64,000 nucleotides of DNA. Origin: an uncultured bacterium. Its GTDB lineage: Bacteria; Krumholzibacteriota; Krumholzibacteriia; JACNKJ01. The position numbers and the translations under genes were made by a program. Below the pieces are notes generated by a model that worked only from the letters and a program-made list of their open reading frames with translations, had not been told where the DNA came from and ran no database searches. Position 1 is the stretch's first letter. Each line of letters starts with the position of its first letter. The stretch covers positions 1,600,001 to 1,664,000 of the forward strand of contig CAVOFT010000001.1 of NCBI GenBank assembly GCA_963695095.1, given 5' to 3'. This document shows, piece by piece, positions 5,581 through 19,285 of this stretch.

Positions 5581-6063
5581 ATGAACCGGAGATTGCGCGT
5601 CGCGATCCTGCTGGTGGTGGCCCTGGCCGTGGCGGCCGTGCTGCTCTGGGGACGAGGCGCCGAGGCGCCCGGCCGTGCGGAGGCGCCGGGAGCGGCGCCG
5701 GTGGCGGCGGTCGCCGTGGCGCCTGCTGCCGGGGAAGCCGGCAAGCCGGCCGCGCTGCCGCGCCTGGTGGACCTGGGCTCGACCACCTGCATTCCCTGCA
5801 AGAAGATGGCGCCCATCCTCGCCGAGCTGGCCGCCGAGCAGGCCGGCCACCTCGAGGTGCTCGTCATCGACATCCGCGAGGATCCGGATGCGGCTGCCAC
5901 CTACGGCATCCGCCTGATCCCGACGCAGATCTTCTTCGATGCGGGGGGCAAGGAACTCTGGCGGCACGAGGGCTTCATCGACAAGGCCGCCATCCTCGCG
6001 CGCTGGGCCGAACTGGGCGTGGCGCTGCCCGGCGTCGCGCCCGCCGCGGAGCCAGCGGGATGA
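5581..6063 (+). CDS. Membrane-anchored thioredoxin family protein
   Basis: N-terminal TM; LVDLGSTTCIPCKKM and GIRLIPTQIFFD...RHEG. Confidence 0.85.
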   Translation: MNRRLRVAILLVVALAVAAVLLWGRGAEAPGRAEAPGAAPVAAVAVAPAAGEAGKPAALPRLVDLGSTTCIPCKKMAPILAELAAEQAGHLEVLVIDIREDPDAAATYGIRLIPTQIFFDAGGKELWRHEGFIDKAAILARWAELGVALPGVAPAAEPAG

Positions 6064-6755
6064 GCGAGGTCTTCAGCAGCCTGACCGGAGCAGTGCAGGG
6101 CGCCTGGCCCCTGGCCCTCGGCGCGGCTTTCCTGTGGGGCGTGCTCAGCATCGTGCTCAGCCCCTGCCACCTGGCCAGCATTCCGCTCATCGTGGCCTTC
6201 ATCGGGGGCCAGGGTCCGAGCAGCACGCGGCGCGCCGCGGCGCTGGCGAGCCTCTTCAGCCTTGGCATCCTGGTCACCATCGCGGCGATCGGCCTGGCGA
6301 CGGCCGCCCTCGGCCGCATGCTGGGCGATGTCGGCCGCGCCGGCAACTGGATCGTCGCGATCGTCTTCCTCGCGGTGGGCCTGCACCTGGTCGGCGTGAT
6401 TCCAATGCCCGGCGGGCCCGCGCGGGTGGGCCTCGCGCGGCGCGGGGCGCTCGGTGCCCTGCTGCTCGGCCTCGTCTTCGGCATCGCGCTCGGGCCCTGC
6501 ACCTTCGCCTACCTGGCGCCCATGCTGGCAGTCACGCTCTCCGCCGGCTCGGTGAGCCTCCTCTTCGGCAGTCTGCTGCTCCTGACCTACGGCATCGGCC
6601 ACACGGCGGTGATCGCTGTCGCCGGCACCTTCACCCAGCTCGTCCAGCGCACGCTCGACTGGAACGAGCGATCACGGACTTTGGGCGTGATCCGGAGGAT
6701 CTGTGGCGTACTCATCATCCTGGCGGGGCTCTATTTGCTCGCACTGGCGCGCTAG
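6060..6755 (+). CDS. ccdA: CcdA/DsbD-beta family disulfide interchange membrane protein
   Basis: LSPCHLASIP and GPCT conserved Cys motifs; about six TM helices. Confidence 0.85.
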   Translation: MSEVFSSLTGAVQGAWPLALGAAFLWGVLSIVLSPCHLASIPLIVAFIGGQGPSSTRRAAALASLFSLGILVTIAAIGLATAALGRMLGDVGRAGNWIVAIVFLAVGLHLVGVIPMPGGPARVGLARRGALGALLLGLVFGIALGPCTFAYLAPMLAVTLSAGSVSLLFGSLLLLTYGIGHTAVIAVAGTFTQLVQRTLDWNERSRTLGVIRRICGVLIILAGLYLLALAR

Positions 6756-7269
6756 GCGATACGCCGGTTCGGCGCTGCTGATCGCCGGCGGCCTCCTGGC
6801 CAGCGGCATGCCCGCGGCCGCGGCGACGCAGCGCCTGCCCGCGCTCTGGCTCAGCGACCTCCATGGCGGCCGCGCGCCCCTGGACAGCCTGCTCGGCGCG
6901 CGGCCGGCCCTGCTCCTCTTCTGGAGCACGCCCTGCCAGTCCTGTCTGGACAAGCTGCGCGCCGTCGAGGCCTTCGCCCAGGCGCGCGCCGAACAGGATC
7001 TCGCCCTGCTCATGGTCAACATCGACGCGCCGCGCAACAAGAACCAGATCGCACCCTTCTTGCATCGCTTCGAGTTCACGGCGCCTTGCTTCGTCGATCC
7101 CGAGCGCGCCGCCTTCCGCAAGCTCGGCGGCCGGGAGGCGCCCTACCTGGTGCTCCTTTCCGCGGAACGCGAGGTCCTCTATCGCAGCGGCAGCCTTGAT
7201 CGCCGCGATCTGACGGCCATTGCCGCCTTGCTCGAGGCTCAGGACTCGGCAGGCTCGGCGCATGACTAG
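6703..7269 (+). CDS. TlpA/ResA-like thiol-disulfide reductase (start uncertain)
   Basis: LLLFWSTPCQSC active site after a signal-like hydrophobic stretch. Confidence 0.75.
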   Translation: MAYSSSWRGSICSHWRARRYAGSALLIAGGLLASGMPAAAATQRLPALWLSDLHGGRAPLDSLLGARPALLLFWSTPCQSCLDKLRAVEAFAQARAEQDLALLMVNIDAPRNKNQIAPFLHRFEFTAPCFVDPERAAFRKLGGREAPYLVLLSAEREVLYRSGSLDRRDLTAIAALLEAQDSAGSAHD

Positions 7270-7714
7270 AGCCGCGGTGCTGTTTCTCTGCACGGGCAAC
7301 GCCTGCCGCAGCCAGATGGCCGAGGGCTGGGCGCGTCACCTGCACGGCAAGCGGGTCGATGCGGTATCGGCCGGCATGGCGCCCGCGGGCCTGGATCCCC
7401 GGGCCGTGCGTGTGATGGCGGAGGTCGGAGTCGACATCGGCGGCCAGCAGAGCAAGGGACTTGCCGAGCTGGGCAAGCGACGCTTCGAGCTCGTCGTCAC
7501 CGTCTGCGACCGGGCGCGGGAGGCCTGTCCCGTGCTGCCCGGCGCACGGCACCTGCACGCGGGCTTTCCCGATCCGCCGGCCCTCGCTCGCGGCGCGGCG
7601 AGCGAGGAGGAGGCTCTGGATCACTACCGGCGGGTGCGCGATGCCATCCGCGAGCTCGTCGCCGGCCTGCCGGCGCTGCTGGCCGCCGCGCGGGGCCCCG
7701 GAGGCCAGCGCTGA
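7262..7714 (+). CDS. arsC: Thioredoxin-dependent arsenate reductase (LMW-PTP fold)
   Basis: [18 protein letters not shown]-loop and [12 protein letters not shown]. Confidence 0.92.
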
Positions 7715-8907
7715 TGCCCGCGGAAGCCTGTGTCAGCAAGCGCCCCGGAGGGCTGGGCGGCTTCGAGCGCTGGCTCACGCTCTGGGTGCTGCTGTCGATC
7801 GGGGCGGGCATCCTGCTCGGCAAGCTGGCGCCGGGCCTGGCGCGCTGGCTGGACGGCCTCGCGCTCCGCGTCGACGGCGCGCCGGTGATCAGCCTGCCCA
7901 TCGCCCTCTGCCTCTTCTTCATGATGTACCCGATCATGGTCAAGATCGACTTCGCCGAGCTGCTGCGCGCCGGCCGCGGCGCGAAGCCGGTGGCGCTCAC
8001 CCTCGTCGTCAACTGGGCGATCAAGCCCTTCACGATGCTCGCCATCGCGAGCTTCTTCCTCGGCGGCGTCTTCTTGCGCTTCATCGGTCCGGAGGCCGTG
8101 GACCTGGTCAAGCTGCCCCTCGGACTCGACCTGCCGGTGGGGGCGAGCTACGGCGCAGGCACCGTGGTGCTCGCCGATGGCGTCAAGCTGCTGGCCGTGC
8201 CGCTCTGGCGCAGCTACCTGGCCGGCTGCATCCTGCTGGGCGTGGCGCCCTGTACGGCGATGGTGCTGGTCTGGGGCTACCTCGCCCGCGGCAACGACGG
8301 CCACACCCTGGTGATGGTGGCGATCAACTCGCTCGCGATGCTCCTTCTCTACGGACCGCTGGGCGGCCTGCTGCTCGGCGTGGGCCGCCTGCCCGTGCCC
8401 TGGCAGGCCCTGCTGCTCTCGATCGCCGTCTATGTCGCCCTGCCCCTGGTCGCGGGCTACCTCACGCGGCGCTGGCTGGTGGCCGCCCGCGGCGAGGCCT
8501 GGTTCGCCGAGCACTTCCTGCATCGGCTGACTCCGGTCACCATCGTCGCGCTGCTGACCACGCTCGTCCTGCTCTTCTCCTTCAAGGGCGAGACGATCCT
8601 CGCCGCCCCGCTCACGATTCTCTGGATCGCGGTGCCGCTCTTCCTGCAGACCCTCCTCATCTTCGGACTCACCTATCTCCTGGCCCACCGCCTGCGCCTG
8701 GACTACCGCGATGCGGCTCCCAGCGCGCTGATCGGCGCCTCCAATCACTTCGAGGTCGCCATCGCCACGGCCACGCTGCTCTTCGGCCTCGGCTCCGGCG
8801 CCGCGCTGGCCACGGTGGTGGGCGTTCTCATCGAGGTGCCGGTGATGCTGCTCCTCGTGCGGCTTTGCCTGCGCAGTCGTGGCCGCTTCGCCGCCTTCGC
8901 GCGTTGA
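7714..8907 (+). CDS. acr3: ACR3 family arsenite efflux transporter
   Basis: [52 protein letters not shown]. Confidence 0.93.
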
Positions 8908-8975: not shown

Positions 8976-10364
8976 ATGCCGCGACGCCTGCCTGCGCGCC
9001 TGACGCGCCGTCTCGCCCTGCTCTTCGCCCTGCTCGCGGCCGGCGCCGCCCACGCCGGGGCTGCGCCGCCGCGGCATGTCATCCTGTGCATCGGCGACGG
9101 CATGGGCTTCAACCACGTCGCCCTGGCCAGCCTCTGGGCCGCGGGCCGGCCGGACGCGGCGCCCTTCGCCGACTGGCCGGTGCGTCTCGCCTTGAGCACC
9201 GAGCCCGCCGGCGCGCCGCCCTACTCGCCCGCCGGCTTCTGGAGCCAGTCCGGCCAGCGACGGCGCGGCATCACCGATTCCGCGGCGGCGGCCACGGCCC
9301 TCGCCACGGGGGTCAAGACGGCGAACGGAGTGCTGGGGCTCACCCCCGACGGCCGTCCCCTGCACAATCTCACCGAGTGGCTGGGTGAGCGCGGTCTCGC
9401 GACGGGGTTGGTCACGAGCGTGCCCTTCGTCCATGCCACGCCGGCCGGCTTCGTCGTGCACGTCGAGGACCGCGACGACTACCGCGCCATCGCCCGGCAG
9501 CTCCTGCTGGAGAGCCGCCTGCGCGTGCTGATGGGCTGCGGCGATCCTGCCTACGCCGCCGACGGCCGGCCGCTCGAGCAGCCCCGGGGCTTCGGCAAGG
9601 TCGGCGGCCGCGAGCTGTGGGCGGGGCTGCTCGCCGGGGCGACGACCTTCGACCTGGACGGCGACGGCGCCATCGACGCGGAGCTGATGGATCTGGACGG
9701 CGACGGCCGGCGCGATCCCTGGCAGCTCGTCACGGAGCGCGCCGCGGTGCAGGCCCTCGCCGCCGGCCCGACGCCGCTGCGCCTGCTCGTCGTGCCGCGC
9801 GGCGGACTCACGCTGCAGGCCGAGCGCCCCGGCCCCCGCCATCGCGCGCCCTTCGCGGTGCCCTTCGATGAATCGCTGCCCACGCTCGCCGAGATGAGCC
9901 TGGCCGCGCTCAACGTGCTCGACACGGATCCGGACGGCTTCTTCCTCATGATCGAGGGCGGCGCCATCGACTGGGCGGCCCACGACAACGATGCGGGCCG
10001 CCTGGTCGAGGAGCAGCTTGCCTTCCATGCCGCCGTCGCTGCGGTGATGGACTGGGTCGCGCGGGAGAGCAGCTGGGAGGAGACCTTGCTCATCGTCACC
10101 GCCGACCACGAGACGGGCGGCCTCAGCGCGCCGGGCTGGGGGCGCCGACGCTGGCAGCCGCTGCGCTCGCGCGGCATCCATCGCCTGGCGCGGCATCAGT
10201 GGGGCAGCAGCGATCACAGCGGCGCCCTCGTGCCGCTCTATGCGATCGGTTGCGGCAGCGAGACGCTGGCCGCGCTGGCCGAGGGCAGCGATCCGCGCCG
10301 CGGCCCCTACCTCGACAACACGGCGATCGCCCCGGCCATCCGGGCGCTCTGGCGGCATCGCTGA
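8976..10364 (+). CDS. phoA: Alkaline phosphatase (PhoA family)
   Basis: Signal peptide, ILCIGDGMG, TDSAAAATA, HATPA, IEGGAIDWAAH, TADHETGG. Confidence 0.88.
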   Translation: MPRRLPARLTRRLALLFALLAAGAAHAGAAPPRHVILCIGDGMGFNHVALASLWAAGRPDAAPFADWPVRLALSTEPAGAPPYSPAGFWSQSGQRRRGITDSAAAATALATGVKTANGVLGLTPDGRPLHNLTEWLGERGLATGLVTSVPFVHATPAGFVVHVEDRDDYRAIARQLLLESRLRVLMGCGDPAYAADGRPLEQPRGFGKVGGRELWAGLLAGATTFDLDGDGAIDAELMDLDGDGRRDPWQLVTERAAVQALAAGPTPLRLLVVPRGGLTLQAERPGPRHRAPFAVPFDESLPTLAEMSLAALNVLDTDPDGFFLMIEGGAIDWAAHDNDAGRLVEEQLAFHAAVAAVMDWVARESSWEETLLIVTADHETGGLSAPGWGRRRWQPLRSRGIHRLARHQWGSSDHSGALVPLYAIGCGSETLAALAEGSDPRRGPYLDNTAIAPAIRALWRHR

Positions 10365-10417: not shown

Positions 10418-11596
10418 TTAGCCGCGCGGCGTGGCGGCGAGCTGTTCGAAGCGGGCGAGCTGCAGCTTGAGGTAGTCGCTGTCCGGGTTCAGCTGCAGGG
10501 CTTCGCGGATCAGGGTCAGCGCCTCCCCGCAGTCGCCGCGCGCATTGCAGAGCTCGGCCAGCGTGTCCAGGATGTTCGCCTTCTCGCCGCCCTCCGCCAG
10601 GGCCACGCCGCGGCGAGCGAAGGCTTCGCCCTCGGCCAGGGCGACCTCGTTCTCGAAGCACCACCAGGCGATCTCGTTGAGGGCGGCGGCCTCCTGCTCC
10701 CAGCCCGGGGCCATGCTCTTGCGCTTCCAGGCGAAGGCCTCGTCCTGGCGGCCGTCGATGAGCAGCGCGTGGTCGGCCATCAGGCGGGCATGCAGGCGCT
10801 GCTCCTCGGCGTCCGTTGCGCCGGCGAGCCGCGCCGCGCCCAGCTTGAGCCCTTCCAGGTAGGGGCTGCGGTCCTCCTTGCCCGCCGTGGCCTGCCCCAG
10901 CAAGGCCACGGTCTCCATCACCTGCTGGCCGCTGCTGCGCGGATCGCCGATGACCGCGCGGGCCGGCTCCAGGAGGGCCGCCTCGCCGAAGAGCCCCGCC
11001 CGCTGGCCGCGGGCGATGAGCTCGACCATGGCCGGCGCCAGGTGATCCGAGCTGCCCAGCTCCTGGGCGCGGCGATACCAGGCGAGGGCTTCGCCGAAGG
11101 CGCCGCCGACCTGCTCGAGCTCGGCGATCTTCACTGCCGCCGCCGCCGTCGGTGTCTTCCGGAAGTCCCGGCGGCGCTCGATGAGCGGTAGGGGCGCTGC
11201 CGTCGCGGCGCGCAGGGCCGTCAGGAAGGGCTCGGCGGCGCCATAGCCGAGCCAGCCATCGAGCAGGATACCGTCGGCATCGACGAGCAGGAAGGTCGGA
11301 TAGGCGTGGACGCCGTAGCGGCGAGCGAGGCCGATGCCCTCGCCCTTCTCGGCGTCGACAGGGAGCAGGATGGCCTGGGCGGCGATGTCCTGCCGGAAGG
11401 TCTCGCTGGCCTTCACCTCACGGGCGAAGGTCTGGCAGGAGCCTCACCAGGAGGTGCCGATCTCGAGCAGGATGGGCCGTCCGCTGGCGGCGGCCTGGGC
11501 GCCGGCGGCCGCCATGCTGTCGACGGTGTCGGCCACCGCGGCGCCGGCGGCGAAGGTGAAGGCGACGAGGAGGCTGGCGGCGAGCAGGGTTTTCAT
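10418..11596 (-). CDS. Exported thioredoxin-fold plus TPR protein; probable selenoprotein (UGA at 11444-11446, W-U-G-S-C)
   Basis: ORF 11444-11596 (signal peptide, GRPILLEIGTSW) and ORF 10418-11416 (YGVHAYPTFLLVD, TPR helices) are in the same frame and separated only by one TGA at the first Cys position of WCxxC; a SECIS-like hairpin follows. Confidence 0.85.
11410..11430 (-). promoter_or_regulatory. Bacterial SECIS-like hairpin
   Basis: mRNA: UGA-13 nt-CCUUCGCC-CGUGA-GGUGAAGG; 8-bp stem, loop starting 21 nt after UGA with G at loop position 2. Confidence 0.7.
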
Positions 11597-11742
11597 GCGC
11601 GGTCGTCTCCGATGAAGGTGGCCGCAAGGGGCGCCGACGGCAGCCTGCCACATCGGCGATCGCCCTGCGGGAGGGCCCTCACAGTGGCAGAGCTGGCAGG
11701 GGGGCGCAAGCGGATCGAGACGGGTCGAGCTGGGGCGGCGGG

Positions 11743-12087
11743 CTAGAGCGAGCTGGGCATGCTGTCGGCGACGGACTCCTCCTCGCCCAGTTCCTTCTCG
11801 AGCACGGTCAGCAGCACCTGGGCGCCGTTGCGCGACTTGTTGGGGTCCAGGTAGTCGCGGATGGCCGCCTCCAGGGCATTGATGCGGGAGTTGAGATCAT
11901 CGATGATGCTCTCCTGCAGGGAGAGGGCGCCCTGCAGGGAGGCGCACTCGCTGCGGAGCCGGCCGATGAGGCGCTCCTGCTGGTCGAGCCCGGTGAGCAG
12001 GGCGTCGATTTCTTCGCGGTGCGCGGCCAGGCTGAGCCGGCTCGCGGCGAGAAGCTGCTGCTTGGCCACGTCGAGCCGGTGGTTCAT
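11743..12087 (-). CDS. Hypothetical coiled-coil protein
   Basis: 114 aa with heptad pattern and GC-typical codon use; RBS AGGAG upstream. Confidence 0.65.
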   Translation of the reverse strand: MNHRLDVAKQQLLAASRLSLAAHREEIDALLTGLDQQERLIGRLRSECASLQGALSLQESIIDDLNSRINALEAAIRDYLDPNKSRNGAQVLLTVLEKELGEEESVADSMPSSL

Positions 12088-13478: not shown

Positions 13479-15157
13479 TGCGGGGCGCGCTGCGCTGCGC
13501 TCTGCTCTGCCTCGCCTGCGCCTGGGCGACGCCGGCCCCTGCCCAGCTCTCGCCGGGGCCGCTGTCCACGCCCCACGCCGAGCTCGAGGGCCTCAAGCGC
13601 TGCACGAGCTGCCACGAGATCGGCGAGGGCGTGCGCGCGGACAAGTGCTTCGCCTGTCATCGCCAGCTCGGCGCGCGGATCGCCGCGGGCCAGGGCCTGC
13701 ACGCCGGTGCCGACTACGCGAACTGCATCGGCTGTCACTCCGAGCACCACGGGCGCGACTATCCCCTCATCCGCTGGCCCGGCGGCGAAGCCAACTTCGA
13801 CCACGGGGCCGCCGGCTACACGCTCGTCGGCGCCCATGCCCGCCTCGGCTGCCGCGACTGCCACCGCGAGGCGTTCGTCGCCGGCGCTGCCGCGCTGAGG
13901 GCCGAAGGCAGCGATCCCGCGCGCAGCTTTCTCGGACTCGGCAAGACCTGCCTGGACTGCCACCAGGATCCGCATCGCGGCGAGCTGGGCGCGCGCTGCC
14001 TCGCCTGCCACGGCGAGGAGGCCTGGCGGCCCGCCGCCGGCTTCGACCACGCGAGCACGCGCTATCCCCTGCGCGGCAAGCACGCAGATGTGGCTTGCGA
14101 GAAGTGCCATCCGCGCAGCGGCGGCGCCGCGACGGGGGACCTGCACATCGCCTTCAAGGGCGTCGCCTTTGCCGATTGCCGGGACTGCCACCAGGATCCG
14201 CACGCCGGCCGCTTCAAGGAAGCCTGCGCGAGCTGTCACAGCGAGAGCGGCTGGCGGCAGGGCGCGAGCGCGCGCTTCGATCACGAGCGCACGCGCTATC
14301 CTCTGCGCGGCCGGCACGCCGCGCTGGACTGCGGGGCCTGCCACAAGCCGGGCGTCCCGCACGCGCCCCTGGCCCACGCGCGCTGTCTGGACTGTCACGC
14401 GGACAAGCATGAAGGGCAGTTCAAGCTGGCCGGCGCGCTCAGGGATTGCAGCGATTGTCACGACGCCGGCATCAAGGGCTTCGCGCCTGCGAAGTTCGGT
14501 CCGGCGCAGCACGCCGCGAGTCGCTACCCCCTGGCCGGAGCGCACCTGGCCGTGGCCTGCCGCGACTGCCATGCACCCACGGCCGCCTTCGCCGCCGGGC
14601 GCTTCCGCTACGCCGACACCAGCTGCAGCAGCTGCCACGCGGATCCGCACGGCAAGGCGCTCGCGCTCGCGGGTGAGGCCCGCCGCTGCGAGGCCTGCCA
14701 CCAGGTGGCGAGCTGGCGCGCTGTGGCCTGGGATCATGCGCAGACGGCCTTCCCCCTGGCCGAGCGCCACGCCGAGATCGCCTGCCGCGCTTGTCACGAG
14801 CCGATCGCCGGCCAGCCCGCCGGGACGCTGCGTTTCGCCGGCCTGGGCAAGGACTGCGCGACCTGCCATGCCGACGTCCACCGGGGGCAGTTCGTGCTGG
14901 CCGGCGAGCAGGCGACGCGCTGCGAGCGCTGCCACGACAGCCGCGATTGGTTCGCCGCTCGCTTCGAGCACAACCGCGATGCGCGCTTTGCCCTGGACGG
15001 CGCCCACGCGCCCCTGGCTTGCACCGCCTGCCACCAACCCCTCGCAGCTGCAGCGGGCCAGCCGGTCACGCTGCGCTACAAGCCGCTGCCGACGGACTGC
15101 AAGTCCTGTCATCCGGACCTCGTCCCGGCAGCGTCCACGCAAGGAGATCGGCCATGA
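13478..15157 (+). CDS. Multiheme cytochrome c, 20 CxxCH motifs
   Basis: Signal peptide ending APA-QLSPGPLS; 20 CxxCH counted by eye. Confidence 0.92.
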   Translation: MRGALRCALLCLACAWATPAPAQLSPGPLSTPHAELEGLKRCTSCHEIGEGVRADKCFACHRQLGARIAAGQGLHAGADYANCIGCHSEHHGRDYPLIRWPGGEANFDHGAAGYTLVGAHARLGCRDCHREAFVAGAAALRAEGSDPARSFLGLGKTCLDCHQDPHRGELGARCLACHGEEAWRPAAGFDHASTRYPLRGKHADVACEKCHPRSGGAATGDLHIAFKGVAFADCRDCHQDPHAGRFKEACASCHSESGWRQGASARFDHERTRYPLRGRHAALDCGACHKPGVPHAPLAHARCLDCHADKHEGQFKLAGALRDCSDCHDAGIKGFAPAKFGPAQHAASRYPLAGAHLAVACRDCHAPTAAFAAGRFRYADTSCSSCHADPHGKALALAGEARRCEACHQVASWRAVAWDHAQTAFPLAERHAEIACRACHEPIAGQPAGTLRFAGLGKDCATCHADVHRGQFVLAGEQATRCERCHDSRDWFAARFEHNRDARFALDGAHAPLACTACHQPLAAAAGQPVTLRYKPLPTDCKSCHPDLVPAASTQGDRP

Positions 15158-16440
15158 TCGCCGGGACCGCTCGACTTCGCCGCGCTCTGCCCTGGCTGCT
15201 GCTGCCGCTGCCCTTCCTGATCCTGCTCGGGGCCGGCGATGATCAAGCTGGACAGAGCCCGCAGAGCCCGCAGAGCCCGCACGGACCGCTTGCCATCGAC
15301 TGCGCGCACTGCCATGCCACGGATAGCTGGCGCTTCGCCGCCGGCCGGGGCTTCGCGCACGACAGCACGGGCTATGTCCTCGAGGGCGCGCACGCCCAGG
15401 CCGATTGCGTCGGCTGTCACGGCGACCTGCGCTTCGGCCGCGTCGCCTCGGCCTGCGCGGATTGCCACCTCGACGTGCACGCCGGCGAGCTGGGCTTCGA
15501 CTGCGCCGGCTGTCACTCTCCGCACGATTGGCAGCCGACGGGCGGGACCCTGGCCCTGCACGCCGCGCGCGGCTTTCCCCTGCTCGGTGTCCACGCGCGG
15601 GTGGATTGCGAATCCTGCCACGTCGGCGCCAAGGGCGAGGAGTTCGCGGGCACGCCGAGCGACTGCTTCGCCTGCCACGCCGACGACTACGCGGCGACCT
15701 CGGCGCCCGACCACGGGGCGGCGGGCATGTCCACGGACTGCCTGAGCTGCCACTCCTCGGTGGCGCCTGGCTGGGGCGACAGCAACTTCGATCACGATGC
15801 CTACTTCCCGCTGAGCGGCGCCCACGCTCGCCTGGACTGCCTGGCCTGTCACCAGGGCGGCTTCGGCGGCCAGCCGACCAGCTGCATCGGCTGCCACCAG
15901 GCCGACTACGACGGCGCGGACGATCCCGATCACCGGGCCGCCAACTTCGACACGGCCTGCCTCGTCTGTCACAGCACGCAGGCCTGGTCGCCGGCCACCT
16001 TCAATCACGCGGCGACGGCCTTTCCGCTCACGGGCGCGCACACGAGCGCGAGCTGCCTGAGCTGCCATGCCTCCGGCTACGCCGGCACGCCGACGGACTG
16101 CTACGCCTGCCACCAGGGGGACTTCGAAAGCGCCGACGATCCGGATCACGCGGCCGCCGGCTTCAACACGCAGTGCGCAGTCTGCCACTCCACGGCGAAC
16201 TGGTCGCCCTCCACCTGGGACCACGATCAGCTCTTCCCGATCTACTCGGGCCGCCATCGGGGCGAGTGGAACAGCTGCGCGGACTGCCACGTGCAGTCCA
16301 CGAACTACGCCGAGTTCGAGTGCATCCTCTGCCACGAGCACAGCCAGAACGAAACCGACGGCCATCACGACAACGTGGACGACTACGTCTACGAGAGCGC
16401 GGCCTGCTTCGACTGCCACCCGCGCGGCGAGGCCGATTGA
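15154..16440 (+). CDS. Multiheme cytochrome c, 16 CxxCH motifs
   Basis: N-terminal hydrophobic signal; 16 CxxCH counted by eye; acidic C-terminal half. Confidence 0.92.
   Translation: MIAGTARLRRALPWLLLPLPFLILLGAGDDQAGQSPQSPQSPHGPLAIDCAHCHATDSWRFAAGRGFAHDSTGYVLEGAHAQADCVGCHGDLRFGRVASACADCHLDVHAGELGFDCAGCHSPHDWQPTGGTLALHAARGFPLLGVHARVDCESCHVGAKGEEFAGTPSDCFACHADDYAATSAPDHGAAGMSTDCLSCHSSVAPGWGDSNFDHDAYFPLSGAHARLDCLACHQGGFGGQPTSCIGCHQADYDGADDPDHRAANFDTACLVCHSTQAWSPATFNHAATAFPLTGAHTSASCLSCHASGYAGTPTDCYACHQGDFESADDPDHAAAGFNTQCAVCHSTANWSPSTWDHDQLFPIYSGRHRGEWNSCADCHVQSTNYAEFECILCHEHSQNETDGHHDNVDDYVYESAACFDCHPRGEAD
15253..15279 (+). repeat. In-frame 9-bp tandem repeat (CAGAGCCCG x3, encodes QSP)
   Basis: Direct reading of the sequence. 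Confidence 0.85.
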
Positions 16441-17993
16441 TGCACAGGTTCATTCCGGCCCTCGCATTCCTGCTCGCCGCGAGCGCCGCCGCGGCCTCGC
16501 CGGAGGCGCGCATCCGCTACCTCTCGGCCGAGCAGGTCTATCTGGATGCGGGCCTCGCCGCCGGCTTCGCCGAGGGGGATACCCTGGGCGTGCTGCGCGA
16601 AGGCAGGACCGTGGCCAGCTTGCTCGTCCTCCATGCCGCCGAGCACTCGGCAGCCTGCCGCATCCTGGCCAGCCGGGTGGCGCTCGCCGCCGGCGACCGC
16701 GTGCGCGGAGTGCAGCGCAGCGCGCCGCCGGCCGTCGCCGTGCCTCCGGCAGCGCCGCGGCGGAGCCGGGACCCCGCGGCGCCCGCGCCCGGTAGCCCGG
16801 CGTCCCGCGCCTCCAGCGGCCGCTTCAGCGGCAGCCTGCGCTTCGCCTGGGACGCCTACCGGGACGACGCCGCCGCCGCGCGCGACTACGACCGGCTCAG
16901 CGCGACACTCGGCCTGCGCGGTGAGCAGCTGGCCGGCCGCGACCTGCGTCTCGATCTGCGCCTGCGCCAGCGCACGGTGAAGCGCACAGGCGCAGCCGAC
17001 GAGCAGCGCCTGCGCCTCTACGCCGCGGCGATCGAGTACGGCGCAAGCAGGGGCCGCTGGCACCTGGCCGCGGGCCGCCTCGGTGGGGGCCGGCAATCGG
17101 GAGCCGGCGCTCTGGACGGCCTCCTCGTCGGCCGCCGTCTGGGCGATGCCGAACTCGGCGGCTACTTCGGCGCCATGCCCGACTGGAATGAGGAGGGCCT
17201 GCGCGATCGGGGCACGCGCGGGGGTCTCTACCTGCGCCAGCGCCTGGCATCCGCGCAGTGGTCCCTCGAAGCGGTGGGCGAGCGCCTCGCCGGCGAGAGC
17301 AGCCGCGACTACCTCCTGGCGGGCAGTTCCTGGCAGCGCGGCGCCCTCAGCCTGCGCGAACGCCTCGAACTGGATTGGAACCGCGGTTGGCGGGGGGACC
17401 GGGCGGCGGACGCCCTTCAGGTCAGCGCGCTGAATGTCGGCGCCGACTGGCGGCCGCACGCGGACTTCGGCCTCGGCCTGCGTGTGGACAGCCGCGCCAC
17501 GCCCCTGGACGGCGAGCAGCGCACGCTCCCCGATAGCCTCTTCCAGGAAGCGCGCTCGCAGGGCAGCAGCCTGAGCCTCTCCTGGCGTCCCCTGCCCGGC
17601 GCGCGCCTGGGCGCGCGCGCCGGTTGGCGCAGCCGCGCCGGGTCTGCGCGCGGGACGGCCTCATGGGGTCTGGACCTGGGCATCGACGCGCCGGCCCTGC
17701 CTCACCTGCACCTGGATCTCCGCCTGAGCGGCTTCGACGGCGAAGCGGCCCGAGGCCTCTCCCCGAGCGCGGACCTGCGCCGGCGCTTCCGCGCGGGCCA
17801 CGAGCTGGGACTGGCCGCGGGCGCCTACCTCTACACGCCGCGCGACCTCGAGGCTCGCCACAATCGCTGGCTGCGCGCCGAGGGTCGCCTGGCGCTAGCC
17901 GGCCGCGCCTGGCTGGGGCTCTCCATCGAAACGGATGGCGGCGACGATCTCAGCGGCCGGCGCTTCGGCGCCGAACTGGGACGGCGCTTCTAG
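16440..17993 (+). CDS. Outer-membrane beta-barrel protein (putative porin of a porin-cytochrome complex)
   Basis: Signal peptide, small N-terminal beta domain, Pro-rich linker, many amphipathic strands, terminal FGAELGRRF. Confidence 0.75.
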   Translation: MHRFIPALAFLLAASAAAASPEARIRYLSAEQVYLDAGLAAGFAEGDTLGVLREGRTVASLLVLHAAEHSAACRILASRVALAAGDRVRGVQRSAPPAVAVPPAAPRRSRDPAAPAPGSPASRASSGRFSGSLRFAWDAYRDDAAAARDYDRLSATLGLRGEQLAGRDLRLDLRLRQRTVKRTGAADEQRLRLYAAAIEYGASRGRWHLAAGRLGGGRQSGAGALDGLLVGRRLGDAELGGYFGAMPDWNEEGLRDRGTRGGLYLRQRLASAQWSLEAVGERLAGESSRDYLLAGSSWQRGALSLRERLELDWNRGWRGDRAADALQVSALNVGADWRPHADFGLGLRVDSRATPLDGEQRTLPDSLFQEARSQGSSLSLSWRPLPGARLGARAGWRSRAGSARGTASWGLDLGIDAPALPHLHLDLRLSGFDGEAARGLSPSADLRRRFRAGHELGLAAGAYLYTPRDLEARHNRWLRAEGRLALAGRAWLGLSIETDGGDDLSGRRFGAELGRRF

Positions 17994-17994
17994 C

Positions 17995-19285
17995 ATGGAG
18001 ACCCTTGCCATCTGGGGCGGCGCCCTCTTGCTCGTGCTGGCCGTCGTGCTGCCCTACGCGCGCAGCTTCCGCCGCCGCGAGCGCGAGACGGCCGCCCGGC
18101 GCGCGGAAGCGGTAGCGCTGGGGGCCGATCGCGCCATCGCCCAGCACCCCCAGGTCGACGCGCTGCGCTGCATCGGCTGCGGCGCCTGTGTCGCCGCCTG
18201 TCCCGAGGGGGAGGTGCTGGGTCTGGTGGCGGGCAAGGCCGTCATCATCAACGGGCTCAAGTGCGTGGGCCACGGCCTCTGCGCGGTGGCCTGTCCGGTC
18301 GAGGGTATCAGCGTCGGGCTGGGCGACCTCGGCGCGCGCGACGACATCCCCCAGCACGATGCGCATCTGGAGACGAACCTGCCGGGGGTCTACGTGGCCG
18401 GCGAGTTGAGCGGCTATGCGCTGATCCGCAACGCGGTGGCCCAGGGCGTCCAGGCCGTCGAGCACATGGCGAGCCAGCCGCGGGCGGCGGCGGATCGCCT
18501 CGACCTGCTCATCGTGGGCGCCGGGCCGGCGGGCCTGGCCGCGGCCCTCGCCGCCAAGGAGGCGGGCCTGCGCAGCCTGGTGCTGGAGCGCGAGGCCGCG
18601 GGCGGGACAATCTTGCAGTACCCGCGCAAGAAGCTCGTGCTGACCCAGCCGGTGGCGATCCCCCTCTACGGCGTTCTCGACCGCGAGGAGTACACCAAGG
18701 AGGAGCTGCTGGAGATCTGGCGCGGCATCGTCGAGCGCTTCGCGCTTGCCCATCGAGATCGGCGCCAGCGTGGACGGCATGCAGGCGCTCGCCGGGGGCG
18801 GTTATCGCCTCACGGCCGCCGGGCGGCACTGGGATGCTCAGCGCGTGCTGCTCGCCCTGGGCCGCCGCGGCACGCCGCGCAAGCTGGGCGTGCCCGGCGA
18901 GGACAGCGAGAAGGTCTTCTACAAGCTGCTCGATGCCGCCTCCTTCGCCGGCGAGCGCGTGCTCGTCGTGGGCGGTGGCGACAGCGCCGTCGAGGCGGCA
19001 ATGGGCCTGGCCCTGCAGGAGCACACGGCCGTCACCCTCGCCTACCGCAAGGAGAAGCTGTTCCGCATCAAGCGGCGCAACGAAGAGCGCTTCGCGCCGC
19101 TCCTGCGGGAGGGCCGCCTGCGCGCGGCCTTCAATGCGGATGTGCTCGCCATCGAGCCTGAGGCCGTACGCTTGCGCGTCGCGGGCAGGGAGGAGACGCT
19201 CGCCAACGATCGCGTCTTCGTTCTCGCGGGCGGCGAGCCGCCCTTCCCCCTGCTCAAGGCGATGGGCTTGCGCTTCGGCCGCTAG
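17995..19285 (+). CDS. Membrane-anchored 4Fe-4S dicluster plus FAD/NAD(P)H oxidoreductase, TrxR-like fold (frameshift at ~18745, probably an assembly error)
   Basis: N-terminal TM, CIGCGACVAACP, CVGHGLCAVACP, IVGAGPAG; continues in the +1 frame with ALGRRGTPRKLGVPGE and VVGGGDSA. Confidence 0.8.

Follow-up and report, generated by a model that had tools for sequence, protein, structure and literature searches.

Does the in-frame TGA codon in a minus-strand reading frame at 11596-10418 terminate translation, or does it specify selenocysteine (Sec) in the active site of a thioredoxin? The frame lies in a 64,000-nucleotide stretch of DNA from an uncultured member of the Krumholzibacteriota (contig CAVOFT010000001.1, positions 1,600,001 to 1,664,000), hereafter called the window; coordinates are window positions, and TGA is translated as U. 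The coding sequence comprises 392 codons followed by a TAA stop, its match to its own genome spans residues 1-392 with one TGA inside, and the sole in-frame TGA is codon 51 (11446-11444), within the translated segment L-E-I-G-T-S-W-U-G-S-C-Q-T-F-A-R-E. An earlier, sequence-only reading had drawn attention to the minus-strand codons ATC GGC ACC TCC TGG TGA GGC TCC TGC CAG ACC TTC, which are present exactly as quoted, and had proposed a joined product of 392 residues with a single recoded codon, which the translation reproduces. The TGA (11444..11446) belongs to a redox motif, W50-U51-G52-S53-C54 (11435..11449), whose W, U/C and C columns are conserved. We consider it very likely that the gene encodes, with Sec at codon 51, an exported thioredoxin-tetratricopeptide repeat (TPR) protein whose thioredoxin domain resembles the γ domain of DsbD, and that this protein serves as a reductase or isomerase of the cell envelope.

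Gene calling with translation table 11 divides the locus into two pieces, one of 69 amino acids that starts at an upstream ATG (11444-11653) and one of 332 amino acids that starts at a GTG (10418-11416, minus strand). The second is identical (100% identity) to the protein P0002 of a public collection, so the sequence-only reading was right that standard callers would split the gene. An independent contig from a relative that is ~92% identical covers 11244-11470 without a listed difference at the TGA, although eight differences are not shown; we count this contig as weak support for the codon. A search of sequencing runs returned none that contained over 13% of the words sampled; assembly from four sequencing runs gave short contigs of relatives only.

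Comparison with homologs establishes what stands at this position elsewhere. A word-indexed protein search returned 47 relatives, which fall by length into two classes, one with 26 proteins of 312-338 amino acids, named 'hypothetical protein' or 'TPR repeat protein', and the other with 21 of 376-417 amino acids, named 'thiol-disulfide isomerase/thioredoxin'. Twenty of the long homologs align over their full length with the read-through protein and across position 51; these share W50 without exception and nearly always have Cys at positions 51 and 54. We then examined 80 homologous loci drawn from species-representative genomes; most of these are metagenome-assembled and belong, by their labels, to Eisenbacteria, Krumholzibacteriota, Zixibacteria, Fibrobacteraceae, Acidobacteriota, Ignavibacteria, Calditrichia, Latescibacterota, and Gemmatimonadota. 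Opposite U51, 55 loci have TGA, 15 TGC, 6 TGT, and 2 a Ser codon; the remaining 2 loci are truncated and unaligned, so that, of the 78 that do align there, 55 are of the TGA form. The alignments run straight across the TGA and show either Cys or TGA in that column, as the sequence-only reading had anticipated. When TGA is read as a residue, 54 of the 55 TGA loci yield proteins of 350-427 amino acids. The exception (L057:2468-3682) is a TGA-form copy that loses its frame after about residue 105, through either an assembly error or decay to a pseudogene. The two members with Ser at the attacking position carry the motifs W-S-Y-S-C (L008:2657) and W-S-E-G-A (L013:2579); the latter has also lost the resolving Cys and, judging from its motif, is probably redox-inactive.

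A second line of evidence is a hairpin of the selenocysteine insertion sequence (SECIS) type, which lies within the coding sequence 13 nt downstream of the UGA (11410..11430, minus strand). It consists of an 8-bp stem (11430-11423 paired with 11417-11410) and the loop CGUGA (11422-11418), and it encodes T56-F-A-R-E-V-K62. The features ascribed to it in the sequence-only reading, namely eight base pairs, a loop 21 nt after the UGA, and a G near the start of the loop (its second base), were all found. The 48 nt that begin with the TGA align without gaps in 56 sequences (the window and 55 loci), giving the consensus UGA-N13-15, stem UUCGCC, loop C-G-U-G-M, stem GGYGRA, in which G26 and G28 are invariant. 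Standard pairs fill 90.7% of the cells of the 8-bp helix, compared with 34.7-50.7% after a shift of the 3′ partner by 1-3 columns. Changes on both sides occur at five of the eight pairs, including G-C/A-U at 22:32, C-G/U-A/G-C at 24:30, and C-G/U-A at 21:33, and the number of cells changed on both sides is 33, against 12.2 in shuffled alignments, none of 500 of which reached 33. The proposed role of the hairpin as a SECIS is supported by its conservation with covariation.

The hairpin also tracks the codon. A sequence-agnostic motif (TT, six pairs, and an NGNGN loop) was scanned over 892,386 bases; of the 55 TGA loci, 54 have it exactly 18 nt 3′ of the redox codon, as does 1 of the 23 loci whose aligned codon specifies Cys or Ser, and elsewhere in the scanned sequence it matches 21 times. 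One Cys (TGC) form, L065:2633-2680, carries a full SECIS-type hairpin and is the sister of a Sec locus with TGA (L072, support 100); it looks like a recent Sec-to-Cys conversion that has kept a fossil SECIS. Among the residues encoded by the hairpin, position 58 is Ala in 50 and position 59 is Arg in 52 of 54 Sec forms, while in the 21 Cys forms the same positions vary (Asp, Thr, Gln, or Glu at 58; Ala, Lys, Arg, or Glu at 59). Judged by these alignments, the hairpin constrains the protein sequence at residues 58-59, where A-R is fixed in Sec forms only. The fdhF-type SECIS of Escherichia coli is a stem-loop within the reading frame soon after the UGA, with G(U) in its apical loop and a helix that starts 11 nt after the UGA. 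The hairpin described here resembles it in its position inside the frame and near the UGA and in its loop with two invariant G residues, but its helix starts 13-15 nt after the UGA and no bulged U is evident.

The machinery for Sec insertion was searched for throughout the genome (3.64 Mb, 70% G+C). SelA (357.6 bits) and the SelB-specific winged-helix domain (40.2 bits) were found without internal stops in the matches, as were tRNA-SeC (selC) with anticodon TCA and SelD (342.4 bits) with one in-frame TGA; selA, selB, selC, and selD, which the sequence-only reading had named as a test of its proposal, are therefore all present. SelD is itself a selenoprotein with its U at the canonical site, A-S-A-G-G-U-S-A-K (contig C1:69142-70107, minus strand; TGA at about 2437-2439 of locus L003), and its U-S-A-K agrees with the UxxK motif given for SelD in Table 1 of a 2026 review (PMC13188914). 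The region after the selD UGA folds into a centroid hairpin 11 nt downstream (z -0.85), which we do not count as evidence. TGA otherwise serves as a stop in this genome: it terminates the DsbD homolog, and conserved genes are free of internal TGA. SelA, a necessary condition for Sec decoding, was also present in five of five tested genomes that carry the TGA form. No match to the Sec-type formate dehydrogenase alpha subunit exceeded the cut-off in the genome (best 57 bits against 814), which suggests that the genome retains the Sec pathway for the sake of other selenoproteins.

These observations bear on two other fates of the codon. If the TGA were a real stop, arising from a nonsense mutation, an assembly error, or pseudogene formation, the locus would yield only a 50-residue peptide or the 332-residue TPR protein from the GTG at 11416. 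Table-11 calling produces exactly such pieces, public pipelines call the 332-residue form, and the frameshifted L057 demonstrates that decay does occur in the family. However, the TGA recurs in the same column in several phyla with the frame conserved on both sides, the 332-residue product would lack β1 and α1, starting partway through the thioredoxin fold, and the conserved, covarying hairpin would be left without a role; the contig of the ~92% identical relative likewise spans the site with no listed difference. A genuine stop is thus extremely improbable. Formally, UGA51 might instead be decoded as another residue, such as Cys or Trp, by a near-cognate or variant tRNA or under a reassigned code, but nothing specific favors this. 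We regard it as highly improbable: the genome has the whole Sec pathway, with tRNA-SeC and a SelD of Sec type, TGA ends other genes and is absent from the interior of conserved ones, and the spacing between UGA and hairpin is that expected when SelB directs recoding. The gene is, on the sequence evidence, a real, intact, and misannotated selenoprotein gene.

What does the gene encode? A model calculated with AlphaFold2 on a 49-sequence alignment (predicted local distance difference test [pLDDT] score 94.4, predicted template modeling score 0.86) contains two folded domains preceded by a segment of low confidence. Residues 1-22 (11531..11596) look by eye like a signal peptide, with MK at the start, a hydrophobic core, and A-V-A before D23, and the pLDDT is 51-53 over residues 1-20. 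Homologous loci also encode N-terminal hydrophobic segments, with a lipobox-like LAGC in 3 of 77. The character of this N-terminus, together with its low pLDDT, suggests that the protein is exported and resides in the periplasm.

Residues ~23-135 (11192..11530) adopt a thioredoxin fold and match Pfam Thioredoxin_7 (PF13899; 52.6 bits, cut-off 27), with PF13098 also above its cut-off (34.2 bits against 27). Profile searches of the PDB identify the domain as DsbD-γ-like, with best matches to 2kuc (E 2.4e-24), a putative disulphide isomerase of Bacteroides thetaiotaomicron that is closest by sequence, and to DsbD (2fwe, E 9.6e-16). Comparison of the model with known structures by VIA gives matches to thioredoxins, DsbH, and DsbD-like domains (Z 13.7-14.5, with 14.5 for thioredoxins and DsbH; root mean square deviation [rmsd] 2.5-2.9 Å). 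In the model, U51 is situated at the start of helix 52-63, immediately following strand 42-47. The cis-Pro loop that the sequence-only reading had recognized as YGVHAYPTF falls within residues 93-102, and its proline, P100 of YPTF (11297..11299), is found in every one of the 54 Sec and 21 Cys forms. DsbD-γ and the stand-alone Thioredoxin_7 proteins (2fwe, 2kuc, and 3f9u; Z 13.7-14.1), which are periplasmic and of reductase type, are the nearest relatives of this domain in sequence and fold; they differ in having Cys rather than Sec and in lacking a TPR domain, and DsbD-γ is tethered to a membrane domain.

The remainder of the protein, residues ~138-388 (10433..11185), is all-helical in the DSSP assignment (helices 138-388) and TPR-like. 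Pfam TPR_14 scores 27.0 bits (cut-off 23.5), with other TPR models below their cut-offs; Foldseek matches the helical domain to a consensus TPR (E 2.9e-6, template modeling [TM] score 0.57 on the target), and VIA matches TPR proteins at Z of about 14. The fusion of thioredoxin and TPR domains that had been read from the sequence is thus confirmed both by Pfam and in the predicted structure. The most conserved residues of the family lie in the last repeats, namely W299, W311-W-C-F-E-N316, L343-D-T-x-A-E-x-C-N351, Q379, and F383. Two near-invariant signatures stand out, W311-W-C-F-E-N316 (10649..10666), which served as the search pattern for loci, and L343-D-T-L-A-E-L-C-N351 (10544..10570), which is followed by G-D-C356. 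The Cys residues at 313, 350, and 356 are common but not invariant, and a catalytic role for them is therefore unlikely on the alignment.

Taken with the biochemistry of thioredoxins and DsbD, this architecture points to a plausible mode of action. UGA51 would be decoded as Sec by SelB and tRNA-Sec, recruited by the hairpin within the reading frame, and the product, bearing an N-terminal signal peptide, would be exported through the inner membrane. Once mature, it would consist of the W-U-G-S-C thioredoxin domain joined rigidly to a TPR-like superhelix of about 250 residues, and by analogy it would most likely act in the envelope as a thiol-disulfide reductase or isomerase of proteins. The selenolate of Sec51 could attack a disulfide or sulfenic acid of a client protein, and Cys54 would then resolve the mixed selenenylsulfide. 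The oxidized Se-S form could then be re-reduced by a membrane electron transporter of the DsbD/CcdA type, for which both the CcdA gene in the window and a DsbD homolog (C-terminal domain) elsewhere in the genome are possible electron donors. The TPR superhelix is likely the surface that holds the client.

Several observations weigh against this reading. The hairpin region is not significantly more stable than shuffled sequence in this G+C-rich genome when folded as a single sequence (z -2.1 for 70 nt and -0.9 for 66 nt), and the significance of the hairpin derives from the comparison among homologous loci rather than from single-sequence stability. A search of Rfam with 11250-11600 (E <= 10) gave two chance miRNA matches and no family. 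SelA is also found in all five genomes tested in which the listed copy has Cys, and its presence does not discriminate between the two forms. No RNA run is listed as containing the stretch. The CcdA gene is 3.7 kb from the selenoprotein gene and on the other strand, and may be unrelated to it. The classic reducing C-G-P-C spacer (GP) is found in 10 of 21 Cys forms against 1 of 54 Sec forms, and the redox direction of the Sec forms could, from this rarity, differ from that of the Cys forms. Finally, clustering of flanking reading frames from 78 loci identified no neighbor common to more than 9 of them, and genomic context therefore lends no functional support.

The same lack of a conserved neighbor, cytochrome maturation genes included, weighs against proposals in which the protein is a genuine selenoprotein with a more specific job: a disulfide reductase-chaperone for apocytochrome c (CcmG/ResA plus CcmI-like), a CnoX-like holdase activated by stress, for which redox chemistry would be secondary, or a disulfide-forming oxidase. 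A role in cytochrome maturation would fit the multihaem cytochrome genes at about 13.5-16.4 kb, the thioredoxin-CcdA-redoxin cluster at 5.6-7.3 kb, and the presence of an 'exported cytochrome c biogenesis-related' domain of Bacteroides fragilis (3f9u, Z 13.7) among the top matches of the thioredoxin domain. For the holdase, the combination of thioredoxin and TPR domains is, among solved structures, the architecture of CnoX/YbbN (PMC10998233). The protein does share with CnoX/YbbN (3qou and 3qdn) a thioredoxin domain followed by a TPR domain, and Foldseek retrieves both structures (E 1.4e-4 and 3.9e-5). They superpose poorly on the model, however (TM 0.23-0.32, rmsd about 21-22 Å; VIA Z 12.5, rmsd 21.9 Å), and CnoX/YbbN is absent from the best 60 PDB profile matches. 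CnoX/YbbN is also shorter, at about 285 residues against 392, and no listed form of CnoX contains Sec. CnoX acts in the cytoplasm, together with GroEL, whereas a signal-peptide-like N-terminus is seen by eye here and across the homologous loci. E. coli YbbN is reported to have an SQHC motif and no oxidoreductase activity (10.1101/2020.04.09.034579). We consider any of these specific assignments unlikely, though well short of negligible, and retain the broader assignment as an envelope thiol-disulfide reductase or isomerase.

Selenoproteins with a UxxC motif in a thioredoxin fold are the commonest kind in bacteria, and the principle is thus not new. Of the 119 prokaryotic selenoprotein families in Table 1 of the 2026 review (PMC13188914), those of UxxC type with this fold include thioredoxin (PF00085), a 'thiol:disulfide interchange protein' (PF13098), and DsbA-like and DsbG-like proteins. 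The protein described here resembles these in its thioredoxin fold, in the replacement of the attacking Cys by Sec, in the occurrence of Cys homologs in the same column, and in a SECIS within the reading frame after the UGA. It is unlike them in that its best Pfam match is Thioredoxin_7 and in its ~250-residue C-terminal TPR-like domain with motifs of its own (WWCFEN and LDTLAE-C-N); a TPR domain is ascribed to none of the 119 families, and the review nowhere uses the word TPR. As the domain matches PF13098 above the cut-off and has the motif U-G-S-C, a broad grouping might file the protein under the PF13098 selenoproteins.

Other candidate families were considered as well. No NCBIfam family scored above its cut-off, the best selenoprotein model being TsoB (19.4 bits against 805). 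The UGSC-containing protein (NF041046) gave no match at E <= 0.01, and the UGSC sequence is incidental here because the GS spacer is present in only 14 of 54 Sec forms. The Trx7/PDZ selenoprotein (NF041199) likewise gave no match; its motif is CxxU rather than UxxC. A search of the full-text literature found no thioredoxin-TPR selenoprotein, although supplements, which lay outside the search, could list such a family. The proteins appear to make up a new selenoprotein family of a well-known kind, included in neither NCBIfam nor the 2026 inventory.

The family is sizable, and much of it appears to be truncated in public annotation. A profile search of 1.84 billion cluster representatives (50% identity) returned 654 at E <= 1e-30. 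Among the best 150, 75 are no longer than 345 amino acids, none of them with a CxxC in the first 60 residues, and the other 75 have at least 360 amino acids, with a CxxC (mostly CGPC) in residues 21-110 in 70; some short representatives may be cut by contig ends. Judged by these lengths and motifs, public annotation systematically truncates the family, with half of the best 150 representatives lacking the catalytic N-terminus. Its members are spread over Eisenbacteria, Krumholzibacteriota, Zixibacteria, Fibrobacterota, Acidobacteriota, and related phyla, and little-studied phyla account for most of the family.

An unrooted tree of 77 rows (the window and 76 loci, with L037, L050, L057, and L081 left out and the redox and SECIS-encoded columns kept) places Sec forms in each of its two deep clades. 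The most parsimonious history has 8 changes of the Sec label, and at least 3 are forced by well-supported branches. Because the same hairpin occurs in both deep clades, the simplest reading would be a single origin of the Sec form followed by repeated replacement with Cys. The window gene groups with L006 (support 100) and L012, beside a clade of nine Cys and two Ser forms. Several assemblies have both Sec and Cys paralogs (L012+L034, on one chromosome; L026+L030+L083; L010+L069; L007+L048; L011+L035), and this co-occurrence suggests that the two forms are not simply interchangeable. No paralog was found in the genome of the window gene itself; the two candidates there were rejected, one (L089) as the C-terminal domain of DsbD with a TGA that is a true stop and the other (L087) as a small Thioredoxin_7 protein of Cys type.

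The surroundings of the gene complete the description. A possible Shine-Dalgarno sequence, GGAG (11607..11610, minus strand), lies 10 nt before the ATG at 11596-11594. A scan for promoters and terminators detected nothing promoter-like; its single terminator-like site falls inside the upstream reading frame. On the same strand and 146 nt upstream is a reading frame for a coiled-coil-like protein of 114 amino acids without a family (11743-12087). A thiol-redox and arsenic-type cluster occupies 5581-8907 on the opposite (plus) strand and comprises genes for a thioredoxin (5581-6063), a CcdA/DsbD_TM protein (6060-6755), an AhpC/TSA-redoxin-like protein (6703-7269), a low-molecular-weight phosphatase/ArsC-like protein (7220-7714), and an SBF/Acr3-type transporter (7714-8907). 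The transporter gene is followed by an alkaline phosphatase gene that ends at 10364 and is convergent with the selenoprotein gene. Farther along the plus strand are multihaem cytochrome c7/c3-type reading frames (about 13500-16440) and one for an HdrA-like protein with 4Fe-4S and pyridine-nucleotide-disulphide-oxidoreductase domains (17935-19161).

A bolder reading, which we put forward as a tentative possibility, is that the gene is the founding member of an unlisted, ancestrally Sec-dependent family of 'chaperedoxins' of the cell envelope. Such a family would be the extracytoplasmic counterpart of CnoX, and Sec would repeatedly have been replaced in it by Cys, with the hairpin of L065 as a fossil. 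On that reading, the Sec-thioredoxin and a TPR holdase would jointly protect or repair exported proteins, and, if it were true, the interest of the family for selenium biology and genome annotation would rise. Adding the family to selenoprotein inventories would correct many annotations. The family also offers a clean case of constraint by a SECIS on protein sequence, seen in its F-A-R signature, and its members are candidates for a selenium-dependent protein-repair enzyme of the cell envelope. In the genome studied here, the thioredoxin-TPR gene and selD may be among the reasons why the Sec pathway persists.

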